Of a DNA stretch of 64,000 bases, positions 679 to 37,959 are shown in pieces. The stretch lies in NCBI RefSeq assembly GCF_016903815.1, contig NZ_CP069973.1; one strand, 5' to 3'. Position 1 is the stretch's first letter, and every line of letters begins with the position of its first letter. The notes beneath the pieces were generated by a model, which searched no databases, had not been told where the DNA came from, and saw only the letters and a list, made by a program, of their open reading frames with translations. The stretch is from Escherichia coli (GTDB lineage: Bacteria; Pseudomonadota; Gammaproteobacteria; Enterobacterales; Enterobacteriaceae). Both the position numbers and the translations under genes were made by a program.

Positions 679-788
679 AACAGGCTCGGAAAACGTTTGC
701 GCTTTTTTTGCCACAGGTCAATTCCCTTTTGGTCCGAACTCGCACATAATACGCCCCCGGTTTGCACACCGGGAATCCAGGAGAGTTC

Positions 789-1799
789 ATGTACTACCCC
801 TTCGTTCGTAAAGCCCTTTTCCAGCTCGATCCAGAGCGCGCTCATGAGTTTACTTTTCAGCAATTACGCCGCATTACCGGAACGCCGTTTGAAGCACTGG
901 TGCGGCAGAAAGTGCCTGCGAAACCTGTTAACTGCATGGGCCTGACGTTTAAAAATCCGCTTGGTCTGGCAGCCGGTCTTGATAAAGACGGGGAGTGCAT
1001 TGACGCGTTAGGCGCGATGGGATTTGGATCGATCGAGATCGGTACCGTCACGCCACGTCCACAGCCAGGTAATGACAAGCCGCGTCTCTTTCGTCTGGTA
1101 GATGCCGAAGGTTTGATCAACCGTATGGGCTTTAATAATCTTGGCGTTGATAACCTCGTAGAGAACGTAAAAAAAGCCCATTATGATGGCGTCCTGGGTA
1201 TTAACATCGGCAAAAATAAAGATACGCCGGTGGAGCAGGGTAAAGATGACTATCTGATTTGTATGGAAAAAATCTATGCTTATGCGGGATATATCGCCAT
1301 CAATATTTCATCGCCGAATACCCCAGGACTACGCACACTGCAATATGGCGAAGCGCTGGATGATCTCTTAACCGCGATTAAAAATAAGCAAAATGATTTG
1401 CAAGCGATGCACCATAAATATGTGCCGATCGCAGTGAAGATCGCGCCGGATCTTTCTGAAGAAGAATTGATCCAGGTTGCCGATAGTTTAGTTCGCCATA
1501 ATATTGATGGCGTTATTGCAACCAATACCACTCTCGATCGTTCTCTGGTTCAGGGAATGAAAAATTGCGATCAAACCGGTGGCTTAAGTGGTCGTCCGCT
1601 TCAGTTAAAAAGCACAGAAATTATTCGCCGCTTGTCACAGGAATTAAACGGTCGCTTACCGATCATCGGTGTTGGCGGCATTGACTCGGTTATCGCTGCG
1701 CGTGAAAAGATTGCTGCGGGGGCCTCACTGGTGCAAATTTATTCTGGTTTTATTTTTAAAGGTCCGCCGCTGATTAAAGAAATCGTTACCCATATCTAA
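789..1799 (+). CDS. pyrD: Dihydroorotate dehydrogenase (quinone)
   Basis: Translation [21 protein letters not shown]… matches PyrD; start moved to internal ATG at 789 preceded by GGAG; ORF track starts at 762. Confidence 0.95.
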
Positions 1800-10920: not shown

Positions 10921-11480
10921 AAAAGTGGCTAGTGACGATTGCAGCACTGTGGCTGGCCGGATGCAGCTCCGGCGAAATTAATAAAAACTATTACCAGTTA
11001 CCTGTGGTGCAGAGCGGTACACAAAGTACCGCCAGCCAGGGTAATCGCCTGTTATGGGTAGAGCAGGTCACTGTTCCTGACTATCTGGCGGGGAATGGTG
11101 TGGTTTATCAAACCAGTGATGTGAAGTATGTGATTGCCAACAACAACTTGTGGGCCAGCCCGTTGGATCAACAGTTGCGCAACACTCTGGTTGCCAACCT
11201 GAGCACGCAACTGCCCGGCTGGGTGGTTGCCTCCCAGCCTCTGGGAAGCGCCCAGGATACGCTCAATGTTACCGTAACGGAGTTTAACGGGCGATATGAT
11301 GGCAAGGTCATTGTCAGTGGTGAGTGGCTGTTGAACCACCAGGGACAACTGATCAAACGTCCGTTCCGTCTGGAAGGGGTGCAAACTCAGGATGGTTACG
11401 ATGAAATGGTTAAAGTGCTGGCCAGTGTCTGGAGTCAGGAAGCCGCTTCTATTGCGCAAGAGATAAAGCGTCTACCGTAA
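10917..11480 (+). CDS. pqiC: Lipoprotein PqiC (YmbA)
   Basis: Lipobox LAGCSS; ATGA overlap with pqiB stop suggests translational coupling. Confidence 0.85.
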   Translation: MKKWLVTIAALWLAGCSSGEINKNYYQLPVVQSGTQSTASQGNRLLWVEQVTVPDYLAGNGVVYQTSDVKYVIANNNLWASPLDQQLRNTLVANLSTQLPGWVVASQPLGSAQDTLNVTVTEFNGRYDGKVIVSGEWLLNHQGQLIKRPFRLEGVQTQDGYDEMVKVLASVWSQEAASIAQEIKRLP

Positions 11481-11735
11481 TCATAAAGATTTGTAAATAT
11501 AACCGTCTCCGGTATGTTGCCTGAGGCGGTTTTTTTGTTTCTAACTTGCGGAAAAAGTTGTTCCTCTTCACATTTTTTGTACAACTGACATGCCCGTGTA
11601 GCTCACAAATATGACAGTGGCGTGAATTTTGCGCATTGACGGCAGTTATGATTCGCGGTATTGCTTAACTGTGATTGCACATTTAGTAATCACTGTTTTC
11701 TTTTCCACCAGAAACCAGTATGAGGGAAACGAGGC

Positions 11736-11903
11736 ATGAAGAGACAAAAACGAGATCGCCTGGAACGGGCACATCAACGTGGTTATCAGGCCGGCATCGC
11801 CGGACGCTCAAAAGAAATGTGTCCCTATCAGACGCTGAATCAAAGGTCACAATGGCTGGGAGGCTGGCGAGAAGCCATGGCGGACAGGGTAGTAATGGCC
11901 TGA
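11736..11903 (+). CDS. rmf: Ribosome modulation factor (55 aa), below ORF-track cutoff
   Basis: Manual translation MKRQKRDRLERAHQRGYQAGIAGRSKEMCPYQTLNQRSQWLGGWREAMADRVVMA; RBS GAGG upstream. Confidence 0.9.
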   Translation: MKRQKRDRLERAHQRGYQAGIAGRSKEMCPYQTLNQRSQWLGGWREAMADRVVMA

Positions 11904-11916
11904 TTCTGTCTCTTTA

Positions 11917-11955
11917 AAAAGAAACCTCCGCATTGCGGAGGTTTCGCCTTTTGAT
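11917..11955. terminator. Bidirectional rho-independent terminator between rmf and fabA
   Basis: Hairpin AAACCTCCGCATTGCGGAGGTTT flanked by A and T runs. Confidence 0.6.
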
Positions 11956-11972
11956 ACTCTGTCTGATTATAA

Positions 11973-12491
11973 TCAGAAGGCAGACGTATCCTGGAACAGA
12001 CCGACTTTCAGGTCGCTGGCGGTATAGATCAGACGACCATCAACCAGCACTTCGCCATCCGCCAGGCCCATAATCAGACGACGGTTAACAATGCGTTTAA
12101 AGTGAATACGGTAGGTCACTTTTTTCGCTGTCGGCAGTACCTGACCAGTGAATTTCACTTCGCCAACGCCCAGCGCGCGGCCTTTACCTTCGCCGCCCAG
12201 CCAGCCGAGGTAGAACCCTACCAGCTGCCACATTGCGTCCAGGCCCAGACATCCTGGCATAACCGGATCACCAATGAAGTGGCATCCGAAGAACCACAGA
12301 TCCGGATTGATATCCAGTTCTGCTTCAACATACCCTTTGTCGAAGTTACCACCCGTTTCGGTCATTTTGACCACACGGTCCATCATCAGCATGTTCGGTG
12401 CTGGCAATTGCGGACCTTTAGCGCCAAACAGTTCACCGCGACCAGAGGCAAGAAGGTCTTCTTTTGTATAGGATTCGCGTTTATCTACCAT
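11973..12491 (-). CDS. fabA: 3-hydroxydecanoyl-ACP dehydratase/isomerase
   Basis: [40 protein letters not shown]… (172 aa); ORF-track ORF extends upstream of the real start. Confidence 0.95.
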
Positions 12492-20502: not shown

Positions 20503-22557
20503 ATGGAACTGAAAGCGACAACGCTTGGAAAACGTCTGGCACAGCACCCTTACGATCGGGCGGTGATCCTCAATGCCGGGATTAAAGTCTCCGGCGATCG
20601 CCACGAATACCTTATTCCTTTCAATCAATTACTGGCGATTCACTGTAAGCGCGGTCTGGTATGGGGCGAGCTGGAGTTTGTACTGCCGGACGAAAAAGTG
20701 GTGCGTCTGCACGGCACCGAATGGGGCGAGACGCAGCGTTTTTACCATCATCTTGATGCTCACTGGCGGCGGTGGAGTGGCGAGATGAGCGAAATTGCGT
20801 CTGGTGTTTTACGCCAGCAACTGGATTTGATTGCCACGCGTACTGGAGAAAATAAATGGCTGACGCGTGAGCAAACCTCTGGCGTGCAGCAACAAATCCG
20901 CCAGGCTTTGTCGGCGTTGCCGTTGCCGGTTAACCGACTGGAAGAATTCGATAACTGCCGTGAGGCGTGGCGTAAATGTCAGGCCTGGTTGAAAGATATT
21001 GAAAGCGCTCGGTTGCAGCATAATCAGGCGTATACCGAAGCCATGCTTACCGAGTATGCGGATTTTTTCCGCCAGGTCGAGTCTTCACCGCTGAATCCGG
21101 CGCAGGCCCGGGCAGTCGTTAATGGCGAGCATTCTTTGTTAGTGCTGGCTGGTGCAGGAAGCGGAAAAACGTCGGTGCTGGTGGCCCGTGCAGGCTGGTT
21201 GCTGGCGCGTGGTGAAGCGTCCCCTGCGCAAATTTTATTGCTGGCGTTTGGTCGCAAAGCCGCTGAAGAGATGGACGAGCGTATTCGCGAACGGCTACAT
21301 ACCGAAGACATTACCGCACGCACGTTTCATGCGCTGGCGCTGCATATTATTCAGCAGGGCAGCAAAAAAGTTCCGATAGTCAGCAAACTGGAAAATGATA
21401 CCGCTGCCCGTCATGAACTCTTTATTGCTGAGTGGCGCAAGCAATGCAGCGAAAAGAAAGCGCAGGCGAAGGGCTGGCGGCAATGGCTGACGGAAGAAAT
21501 GCAGTGGTCAGTGCCAGAAGGTAACTTCTGGGATGATGAAAAATTACAGCGTCGTCTTGCCTCACGCCTCGATCGTTGGGTAAGTCTGATGCGGATGCAC
21601 GGTGGTGCACAGGCAGAAATGATTGCCAGTGCACCCGAAGAGATTCGCGATCTGTTCAGTAAACGTATCAAGTTGATGGCCCCGTTATTAAAAGCCTGGA
21701 AAGGTGCGCTGAAGGCAGAAAACGCTGTCGATTTTTCGGGCCTTATTCATCAGGCGATTGTGATTCTGGAGAAAGGTCGCTTTATCAGCCCGTGGAAGCA
21801 TATTCTGGTTGATGAATTTCAGGATATCTCGCCGCAGCGGGCAGCGTTGTTAGCGGCATTACGCAAGCAAAACAGTCAGACGACGTTGTTCGCCGTTGGT
21901 GATGACTGGCAGGCGATTTACCGATTCAGCGGTGCGCAAATGTCGCTCACCACCGCTTTCCATGAAAACTTTGGTGAAGGCGATCGCTGTGACTTAGACA
22001 CGACTTACCGTTTTAACAGTCGTATCGGTGAGGTGGCAAACCGGTTTATTCAGCAGAACCCAGGCCAGCTGAAAAAGCCGCTAAACAGCTTAACCAATGG
22101 AGACAAAAAAGGCGTCACGTTATTGGATGAGAGCCATCTTGACGGTTTGCTGGATAAGCTCTCTGGTTATGCCAAACCGGAAGAGCGCATTCTGATCCTG
22201 GCGCGTTACCATCACATGAGGCCTGCCAGCCTGGAAAAAGCGGCAACACGCTGGCCGAAGTTGCAAATCGACTTTATGACCATTCATGCCAGCAAAGGGC
22301 AACAGGCGGATTATGTCATTATCGTTGGCTTGCAGGAGGGAAGTGATGGTTTTCCGGCTGCGGCGCGGGAGTCGATTATGGAAGAGGCGCTACTGCCACC
22401 GGTTGAGGATTTCCCGGACGCTGAAGAACGGCGGTTAATGTACGTGGCGCTAACCCGGGCACGCCATCGGGTATGGGCACTGTTTAACAAAGAGAATCCC
22501 TCTCCCTTTGTGGAAATACTGAAAAATCTGGATGTGCCGGTGGCGAGAAAACCGTAA
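20503..22557 (+). CDS. helD: DNA helicase IV
   Basis: Start at MELKATTLGKRLAQ; Walker A GAGSGKTS; UvrD-like motifs. Confidence 0.9.
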   Translation: MELKATTLGKRLAQHPYDRAVILNAGIKVSGDRHEYLIPFNQLLAIHCKRGLVWGELEFVLPDEKVVRLHGTEWGETQRFYHHLDAHWRRWSGEMSEIASGVLRQQLDLIATRTGENKWLTREQTSGVQQQIRQALSALPLPVNRLEEFDNCREAWRKCQAWLKDIESARLQHNQAYTEAMLTEYADFFRQVESSPLNPAQARAVVNGEHSLLVLAGAGSGKTSVLVARAGWLLARGEASPAQILLLAFGRKAAEEMDERIRERLHTEDITARTFHALALHIIQQGSKKVPIVSKLENDTAARHELFIAEWRKQCSEKKAQAKGWRQWLTEEMQWSVPEGNFWDDEKLQRRLASRLDRWVSLMRMHGGAQAEMIASAPEEIRDLFSKRIKLMAPLLKAWKGALKAENAVDFSGLIHQAIVILEKGRFISPWKHILVDEFQDISPQRAALLAALRKQNSQTTLFAVGDDWQAIYRFSGAQMSLTTAFHENFGEGDRCDLDTTYRFNSRIGEVANRFIQQNPGQLKKPLNSLTNGDKKGVTLLDESHLDGLLDKLSGYAKPEERILILARYHHMRPASLEKAATRWPKLQIDFMTIHASKGQQADYVIIVGLQEGSDGFPAAARESIMEEALLPPVEDFPDAEERRLMYVALTRARHRVWALFNKENPSPFVEILKNLDVPVARKP

Positions 22558-27656: not shown

Positions 27657-27744
27657 TGGCGGAAGCGCAGAGATTCGAACTCTGGAACCCTTTCGGGTCG
27701 CCGGTTTTCAAGACCGGTGCCTTCAACCGCTCGGCCACACTTCC
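27657..27744 (-). tRNA. serT: tRNA-Ser (anticodon UGA)
   Basis: Reverse complement GGAAGTGTGGCCGAGCGGTTGAAGGCACCGGTCTTGAAAACCGGCG…GCGCTTCCGCCA; long variable arm, 3' CCA encoded. Confidence 0.9.
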
Positions 27745-35327: not shown

Positions 35328-36464
35328 ATGTTTGATTATGAAACATTGCGCTTCATCTGGTGGCTGCTGATTGGCGTGATCCTGGTAGTCTTTATGATCT
35401 CCGACGGATTTGACATGGGGATCGGCTGTCTGCTGCCGCTGGTGGCGCGTGATGATGATGAACGCCGGATAGTGATTAATAGCGTTGGTGCGCACTGGGA
35501 AGGCAATCAGGTCTGGTTGATCCTCGCAGGTGGGGCATTATTTGCCGCCTGGCCCAGAGTGTATGCAGCGGCGTTTTCCGGCTTTTATGTGGCGATGATC
35601 CTGGTGCTGTGCTCGCTGTTCTTCCGCCCGCTGGCCTTTGATTATCGCGGAAAAATTGCCGATGCACGCTGGCGTAAAATGTGGGATGCCGGTCTGGTTA
35701 TCGGCAGTCTGGTGCCGCCGGTAGTCTTCGGTATCGCCTTCGGCAACTTGTTGCTAGGCGTGCCGTTTGCCTTTACACCGCAATTACGCGTGGAGTATCT
35801 CGGCAGCTTCTGGCAACTGCTGACGCCATTCCCTTTATTGTGCGGATTGCTCAGCCTTGGGATGGTGATTTTGCAAGGTGGCGTCTGGTTACAACTGAAA
35901 ACTGTTGGTGTGATTCATCTGCGTTCACAGCTGGCGACCAAACGCGCCGCACTGCTGGTGATGCTGTGCTTTTTGCTGGCGGGTTACTGGCTGTGGGTCG
36001 GTATTGATGGCTTTGTACTGCTCGCCCAGGATGCTAACGGTCCTTCCAATCCGTTAATGAAACTGGTGGCAGTGCTACCTGGTGCCTGGATGAATAATTT
36101 TGTCGAGTCGCCCGTTTTGTGGATCTTCCCGCTGCTGGGGTTCTTCTGCCCATTGCTGACGGTGATGGCGATTTATCGTGGTCGCCCGGGTTGGGGATTT
36201 TTGATGGCGTCATTGATGCAATTTGGCGTGATTTTCACGGCAGGCATCACGCTGTTCCCCTTTGTCATGCCGTCAAGCGTGAGTCCGATCTCCAGCCTGA
36301 CGTTGTGGGACAGTACTTCCAGCCAGCTGACGCTGAGCATTATGTTGGTAATCGTGCTGATATTTTTGCCCATTGTGTTGCTCTACACTCTCTGGAGCTA
36401 CTACAAAATGTGGGGGCGCATGACGACAGAAACTCTCCGCCGTAACGAAAACAAGTTGTACTAA
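35328..36464 (+). CDS. appB: Cytochrome bd-II oxidase subunit II
   Basis: 378 aa multi-TM ORF. Confidence 0.9.
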
Positions 36465-36476
36465 GGAGTAGGAACA

Positions 36477-36569
36477 ATGTGGTATTTACTTTGGTTCGTC
36501 GGCATTTTGTTGATGTGTTCGCTCTCCACCCTTGTGTTGGTATGGTTGGACCCGCGTCTGAAAAGTTAA
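36477..36569 (+). CDS. appX: Small membrane subunit AppX (30 aa), below ORF-track cutoff
   Basis: Manual translation MWYLLWFVGILLMCSLSTLVLVWLDPRLKS; RBS AGGAG 7 nt upstream. Confidence 0.8.
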   Translation: MWYLLWFVGILLMCSLSTLVLVWLDPRLKS

Positions 36570-36579
36570 CGAACGTAAG

Positions 36580-36612
36580 CCTGATGAGGCGCATTAGCGT
36601 CGCATCAGGCAA
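36580..36612. repeat. REP (palindromic unit) element
   Basis: GCCTGATGAGGCGCATTAGCGTCGCATCAGGC imperfect palindrome. Confidence 0.7.
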
Positions 36613-36648
36613 TCAATAATGTCGGATATGAAAAGCGGAAACATATCG

Positions 36649-37959
36649 ATGAAAGCGATCTTGATCCCATTTTTATCTCTTCTGATTCCGTTAACCCCGC
36701 AATCTGCATTCGCTCATAGTGAGCCGGAGCTGAAGCTGGAAAGTGTGGTGATTGTCAGTCGTCATGGTGTGCGTGCACCAACCAAGGCCACGCAACTGAT
36801 GCAGGATGTCACCCCAGACGCATGGCCAACCTGGCCGGTAAAACTGGGTTGGCTGACACCGCGCGGTGGTGAGCTGATCGCCTATCTCGGACATTACCAA
36901 CGCCAGCGTCTGGTAGCCGACGGATTGCTGACGAAAAAGGGCTGCCCGCAGCCTGGTCAGGTCGCGATTATTGCTGATGTCGACGAGCGTACCCGTAAAA
37001 CAGGCGAAGCCTTCGCCGCCGGGCTGGCACCTGACTGTGCAATAACCGTACATACCCAGGCAGATACGTCCAGTCCCGATCCGTTATTTAATCCTCTAAA
37101 AACTGGCGTTTGCCAACTGGATAACGCGAATGTGACTGACGCGATCCTCAGCAGGGCAGGAGGGTCAATTGCTGACTTTACCGGGCATCGGCAAACGGCG
37201 TTTCGTGAACTGGAACGGGTGCTTAATTTCCCGCAATCAAACTTGTGCCTTAACCGTGAGAAACAGGACGAAAGCTGTTCATTAACGCAGGCATTACCAT
37301 CGGAACTCAAGGTGAGCGCCGACAATGTCTCATTAACCGGTGCGGTAAGCCTCGCATCAATGCTGACGGAGATATTTCTCCTGCAACAGGCACAAGGAAT
37401 GCCGGAGCCGGGGTGGGGAAGGATCACTGATTCACACCAGTGGAACACCTTGCTAAGTTTGCATAACGCGCAATTTTATTTACTACAACGCACGCCAGAG
37501 GTTGCCCGCAGTCGCGCCACCCCGTTATTGGATTTGATCATGGCAGCGTTGACGCCCCATCCACCGCAAAAACAGGCGTATGGTGTGACATTACCCACTT
37601 CAGTGCTGTTTATTGCCGGACACGATACTAATCTGGCAAATCTCGGCGGCGCACTGGAGCTCAACTGGACACTTCCAGGTCAGCCGGATAACACGCCGCC
37701 AGGGGGTGAACTGGTGTTTGAACGCTGGCGTCGGCTCAGCGATAACAGCCAGTGGATTCAGGTTTCGCTGGTCTTCCAGACTTTACAGCAGATGCGTGAT
37801 AAAACGCCGCTGTCATTAAATACGCCGCCCGGAGAGGTGAAACTGACCCTGGCAGGATGTGAAGAGCGAAATGCGCAGGGCATGTGTTCGTTGGCCGGTT
37901 TTACGCAAATCGTGAATGAAGCACGCATACCGGCGTGCGCTCTCCATCAAGACAAATAA
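36649..37959 (+). CDS. appA: Periplasmic acid phosphatase/phytase; C-terminus differs from the K-12 sequence as I recall it
   Basis: [22 protein letters not shown] signal peptide; RHGVRAP histidine acid phosphatase motif; ends …[10 protein letters not shown]. Confidence 0.9.

Follow-up and report, generated by a model that had tools for sequence, protein, structure and literature searches.

Ribosome modulation factor (RMF) has long been known as a key factor of ribosome hibernation, the formation of 100S particles, in gammaproteobacteria. It is induced at the transition into stationary phase, where it is controlled by ppGpp and by many transcription factors, cAMP-CRP among them (PMC6904343), and it is under the indirect control of CsrA (PMC10746276). 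The protein occupies the site on the 30S subunit where an mRNA's Shine-Dalgarno (SD) sequence would otherwise pair with the 16S rRNA's anti-SD sequence; two 70S ribosomes joined by RMF form a 90S dimer, and the action of HPF on this dimer yields the inactive 100S particle (PMC10746276). The gene, rmf, is transcribed from a single RpoD promoter in the 256-bp spacer between pqiC and rmf, starting at -58 relative to the start codon, and the same spacer holds many regions bound by transcription factors (Yoshida et al. 2018, PMC6134199).

Translation of rmf is also controlled, and the gene is regarded as a member of the polyamine modulon (PMC7177335; PMC10917681). Two SD sequences have been described. 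SD1, which is responsible for polyamine stimulation, lies in a bulged-out region at 11 nt upstream of the AUG; for SD2 the distance is 2 nt, and this motif lies in double-stranded RNA. This unusual placement makes the translation of RMF polyamine-dependent (PMC7177335).

Here, we analyse a copy of this gene in a 64-kb stretch of Escherichia coli DNA, the whole of which we call the window. We put the probability at about 99% that positions 11736-11903 are the chromosomal E. coli rmf gene, a monocistronic unit between pqiC and the convergent fabA, whose product is the ribosome hibernation factor of stationary phase and stress; no observation of substance speaks against this. The copy matches the reference; rmf is a textbook gene that essentially all E. 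coli genomes already carry in their annotation, and nothing about it here is new. The interest of the case is methodological only, and lies in ORF-length cut-offs and in the quality control of a genome scan. The features discussed are collected in Table 1.

Table 1. Positions of the rmf locus features and of other small genes and RNA elements in the window
Feature	Position	Strand	Evidence
PyrD leader	721-794	+	Rfam 97.9 bits, above gathering
pqiC-rmf intergenic regulatory region, 255 bp	11481-11735	+	spacer length computed; rmf promoter and 5' UTR from literature
Overlapping 65-aa ORF	11720-11917	+	ORF listing; frame differs from rmf, ATG 16 nt upstream of rmf ATG
Distal GAGG, SD-like (published SD1)	11722-11725	+	motif position; 10 nt between motif and ATG
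Proximal GAGG, SD-like (published SD2)	11731-11734	+	motif position; 1 nt between motif and ATG, too close
rmf CDS	11736-11903	+	translation, PDB identity, PF04957, NF011162, RefSeq WP_000828648.1
Bidirectional intrinsic terminator hairpin	11921-11945	both	terminator scan, fold, distances to stops
tRNA (RefSeq: tRNA-Ser)	27657-27744	-	Rfam, above gathering
appX/cbdX, 30-aa cytochrome bd-II oxidase small subunit	36477-36569	+	NCBIfam NF011333 equivalog 80.8 bits; Pfam PF08173; RefSeq cbdX
cspA-type thermoregulator, from cspG 5' leader into coding sequence	38289-38711	+	Rfam 161 bits, above gathering
gnsA, 57-aa GnsA/GnsB family protein, GTG start	39051-39224	+	Pfam PF08178 (GnsAB_toxin) 122.3 bits; RefSeq gnsA
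ymdF, 57 aa, annotated general stress protein	56440-56613	+	RefSeq; Pfam KGG repeat 67 bits

The rmf coding sequence and its product

Translation of the plus strand from position 11736 yields an unbroken frame of 55 codons, from ATG to TGA, with the product MKRQKRDRLERAHQRGYQAGIAGRSKEMCPYQTLNQRSQWLGGWREAMADRVVMA, a small, basic and Arg/Lys-rich protein of 55 aa. The first-pass annotation had proposed a complete ribosome modulation factor at this position, a claim that a stop or a frameshift on retranslation would undo; there is neither, and the frame is intact. Family models, solved structures and RefSeq coordinates all bear the claim out. In a phmmer search, chain v of PDB entry 6h4n has the same residue as the product at all 55 positions (E = 2.7e-34), a match far beyond chance, and the same full identity extends to the RMF chains of 6H58, 9IOT and 4V8G (4v8g_AV), which are E. 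coli structures of the 100S ribosome or of hibernation complexes. The product passes two family models: Pfam PF04957, RMF (79.6 bits, cut-off 27.9, E = 1.7e-22, model positions 1-52 of 53), and NCBIfam NF011162, an equivalog named "ribosome modulation factor" (92.1 bits, cut-off 40, model positions 1-47 of 47). The RefSeq rmf CDS of E. coli strain 7/2, WP_000828648.1, coincides exactly with window positions 11736-11903. Compared with the described E. coli Rmf (WP_000828648.1; 6H4N chain v; 4V8G chain AV), the locus has the same residues, the same CDS coordinates and the same neighbours, and the gene shows no differences. The identity and boundaries of the gene, like the SD geometry and the terminator hairpin described below, are thus established by the present analysis.

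A more distant relative is informative about the reading frame. The RMF structure 2JRM, a 65-residue chain that we take to be a Vibrio orthologue, is homologous to the product over residues 1-50 (E = 4.1e-19, 70.5 bits). Its sequence has diverged and its chain length is different; it belongs to another organism and is an orthologue, not the same protein. Consequently, it is the rmf frame, and not the frame that overlaps it, whose protein sequence is conserved beyond E. coli.

We infer the function of this copy from its 100% identity to the characterised protein; its promoter, its regulation and its mechanism of ribosome binding are likewise taken from published studies of the same protein and locus. 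Cells that enter stationary phase or come under stress would make the 55-residue basic RMF from rmf. The protein would then bind the 30S subunit at the anti-SD region of the 16S rRNA, leading two 70S ribosomes to dimerise as 90S, and maturation of the 90S dimer by HPF would give the "hibernating" 100S ribosome, which is translationally silent. Control of rmf would be exerted by ppGpp, cAMP-CRP and other transcription factors, together with polyamine-dependent translation by way of two badly spaced SD motifs.

An ORF-length cut-off and the overlapping frame

When ORFs are listed at the default cut-off of 60 aa, the sole entry for positions 11600-11970 is a 65-aa ORF that begins with ATG and overlaps rmf in a different frame. 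When the cut-off is lowered to 20 aa, a 55-aa ORF is listed at exactly 11736..11903. The absence of rmf from the ORF track is therefore due to the size cut-off, as the first-pass annotation had said, because its product of 55 aa falls below 60 aa. A cut-off of this kind can have two effects: it conceals real and well-characterised small genes, which in this window are rmf, cbdX (appX), gnsA and ymdF, and it can bring to the fore a longer ORF that is spurious and lies in the wrong frame.

The longer ORF could itself be proposed as the true gene, or as a second, overlapping gene, with the RMF frame incidental. It is open from ATG to stop, it exceeds rmf in length, no other ORF in the region is listed at 60 aa, and the ATG of the 65-aa ORF is located just 5' of the GAGG at 11722. 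We nevertheless give this proposal almost no credence. The 65-aa product has no match to Pfam or NCBIfam families at E <= 1, the ORF is unannotated in every RefSeq record examined, and a reading of the sequence upstream of its ATG at 11720 reveals no SD-like motif, whereas the alternative frame, that of rmf, encodes a protein identical to one experimentally seen on ribosomes. The conservation of the 65-aa ORF within E. coli is fully accounted for by its overlap with rmf. The 65-aa ORF is thus very probably non-coding, and its description as a wrong-frame ORF stands, borne out by the lack of a family match and of RefSeq annotation. It is equally far-fetched that the 65-aa frame is translated alongside rmf, in which case competition between starts could be part of why rmf translation is unusual and sensitive to polyamines, given an ATG 16 nt upstream and the odd placement of the rmf SD sequences. 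Two antisense ORFs that lie over rmf, at 11683-11850 (-) and 11646-11777 (-), have no Pfam matches.

We compared the locus with six other E. coli genomes, including the K-12-derived DH1, that are 99.0-99.8% identical to it over positions 11560-11960 (401 bp). The rmf CDS is nucleotide-invariant in all six. It is thus strongly conserved, but comparison within the species is uninformative on which frame is under selection, and the choice of frame is made by the family models, the PDB matches and the annotation. The seven variable sites found among these genomes are all intergenic, at -150, -148, -144, -62 and -56 from the ATG, with two more past the stop, at +49 and +50. At position 11586, 150 nt before the ATG, all six genomes have C, whereas T occupies this site in the window and in strain 7/2; some of the six also differ from the window at a few further intergenic bases.

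A second proposal, that the product is a paralogue of the Rmf/CrpP fold, either the CrpP associated with integrative conjugative elements (ICEs) or an Rmf-like phage protein, and not the hibernation factor, is refuted: the product does share the signature of the small Rmf/CrpP fold with the Rmf-CrpP family associated with integrative conjugative elements and phages (Rmf_CrpP_fam, NF041886, 51.1 bits against a cut-off of 28), but this match is secondary to the RMF equivalog, the specific phage (Rmf_like_phage, 24.1 bits against a cut-off of 40) and CrpP (CrpP_fam, 19.8 bits against a cut-off of 55) models score below threshold, the product is fully identical to E. coli RMF, and the gene sits in the conserved core chromosomal locus pqiC-rmf-fabA, not in a mobile element.

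The translation initiation region

The first-pass annotation had credited rmf with a good ribosome binding site, and this claim is correct in part. Two SD-like GAGG motifs are present, and they match the published SD1 and SD2 (PMC7177335). Their spacing is non-optimal: a canonical SD core is found about 5-9 nt before the start codon, and the two motifs are separated from the ATG by 10 nt and by 1 nt, respectively, so that neither has the canonical position.

In the minimum free energy fold of positions 11678-11760, a U-rich tract (11694-11706) pairs with the SD/AUG region, but with no more stability than shuffled sequences have (z = 0.32). The fold of the 43-nt initiation region is likewise no more stable than shuffles (z = 0.88). 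The structure of the leader, with its bulged hairpin, is accordingly taken from published experiments.

The pqiC-rmf spacer

The published start site of rmf, at -58, corresponds to about position 11678 in the window, a position that derives from the literature. A simple consensus scan of positions 11400-12100 found no canonical sigma-70 pair of -35 and -10 elements, and consequently the location of the rmf promoter is also taken from the literature. When positions 11300-12200 were searched against Rfam at E <= 1, we obtained only sub-threshold chance matches, with scores of 21-26 bits against gathering cut-offs of 50-59, three of the four overlapping the terminator hairpin. This region contains no known cis-regulatory RNA.

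Several further features of the spacer were observed. At 11671-11693 (+) there is an 8-bp inverted repeat, GTGATTGC-ACATTTA-GTAATCAC; a T-rich run comes after it, and the element was flagged as terminator-like. It spans the published start site of rmf, and two E. coli single-nucleotide polymorphisms fall inside it, 11674 A>G in the left arm and 11680 C>T in the loop. The repeat could be a protein-binding site or a stem at the 5' end of the mRNA. Closer to pqiC, a short hairpin at 11516-11530 (+) is followed by T7 and lies 36 nt past the pqiC stop. It is likely the terminator of the pqiABC operon, which would make rmf a separate transcription unit.

The spacer is interrupted in E. coli strain 350 (NZ_CP018243.1), which carries the IS3-family element IS1203 between pqiC and rmf (1194-2500 of the extracted locus), at the equivalent of about 11614-11619 in the window. 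Counted from the insertion, the published start site is about 60 bp downstream and the rmf ATG about 120 bp downstream; the insertion separates the rmf promoter from roughly the distal half of the 255-bp regulatory spacer. It might alter the regulation of rmf in that strain.

A terminator common to rmf and fabA

Downstream of rmf, a terminator scan reported, on both strands, a hairpin with the sequence GAAACCTCCGC-ATT-GCGGAGGTTTC, which has 11 base pairs, 7 of them G-C, and a loop of 3 nt. Its minimum free energy is -20.2 kcal/mol (z = -4.67), and none of 200 shuffled sequences folds as well, which upholds the call of a strong hairpin terminator after rmf in the first-pass annotation. With a G+C-rich stem-loop and a U-tract, the element has the form of an intrinsic (Rho-independent) terminator. 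The tail on the plus strand is GCCTTTTGAT, where a run of four T is offset by 3 nt (GCCTTTT); the tail on the minus strand is TTTTTAAAGA, where the run is the better one (TTTTT). The hairpin lies 17 nt past the rmf stop and 27 nt past the fabA stop. Because it is reported on both strands, lies past both stops and has the better T-run on the fabA strand, the hairpin is a bidirectional terminator, common to rmf (+) and the convergent fabA (-) and somewhat weaker in the rmf direction.

Genomic context

The window is identical to positions 1084112-1148111 of NZ_CP023820.1, the chromosome region of E. coli strain 7/2 (human faeces, Sweden), with the exception of one base. This single mismatch is at window position 22112 (G versus C), inside helD (20503-22557). 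According to the RefSeq annotation of the matching genome, the gene order is pqiA-pqiB-pqiC (+), rmf (+), fabA (-) and ycbZ (-), so that rmf is found in the enterobacterial chromosomal context pqiABC-rmf-fabA.

This context is almost universal in the species. Of 5,426 complete E. coli genomes, 5,425 match a 701-bp query that contains rmf, and in these the gene is always annotated as rmf and always has pqiC and fabA as neighbours. The one other genome has no match to the rmf region, and four of the matches in the collection are on records labelled as plasmids.

Other small genes and features of the window

Two other small genes had been placed in the window by the same manual translation that recovered rmf, and both calls agree with RefSeq to the base. 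The gene called appX, now named cbdX, encodes a protein of 30 aa, MWYLLWFVGILLMCSLSTLVLVWLDPRLKS, and gnsA encodes a protein of 57 aa from a GTG start. A fourth RefSeq CDS below 60 aa, ymdF, is also located in the window and was absent from the small-gene claim made for rmf in the first-pass annotation. The RNA elements that score above their Rfam gathering cut-offs are given in Table 1.

Between torD and cbpM, the annotation of the matching genome places an IS1397 transposase of the IS3 family, which contains a programmed frameshift, at 49464-50812 (+). Only 1,679 of the 5,426 E. coli genomes cover at least 80% of the stretch cspH-cspG-ymcE-gnsA (36300-39400), and this part of the window is therefore variable.
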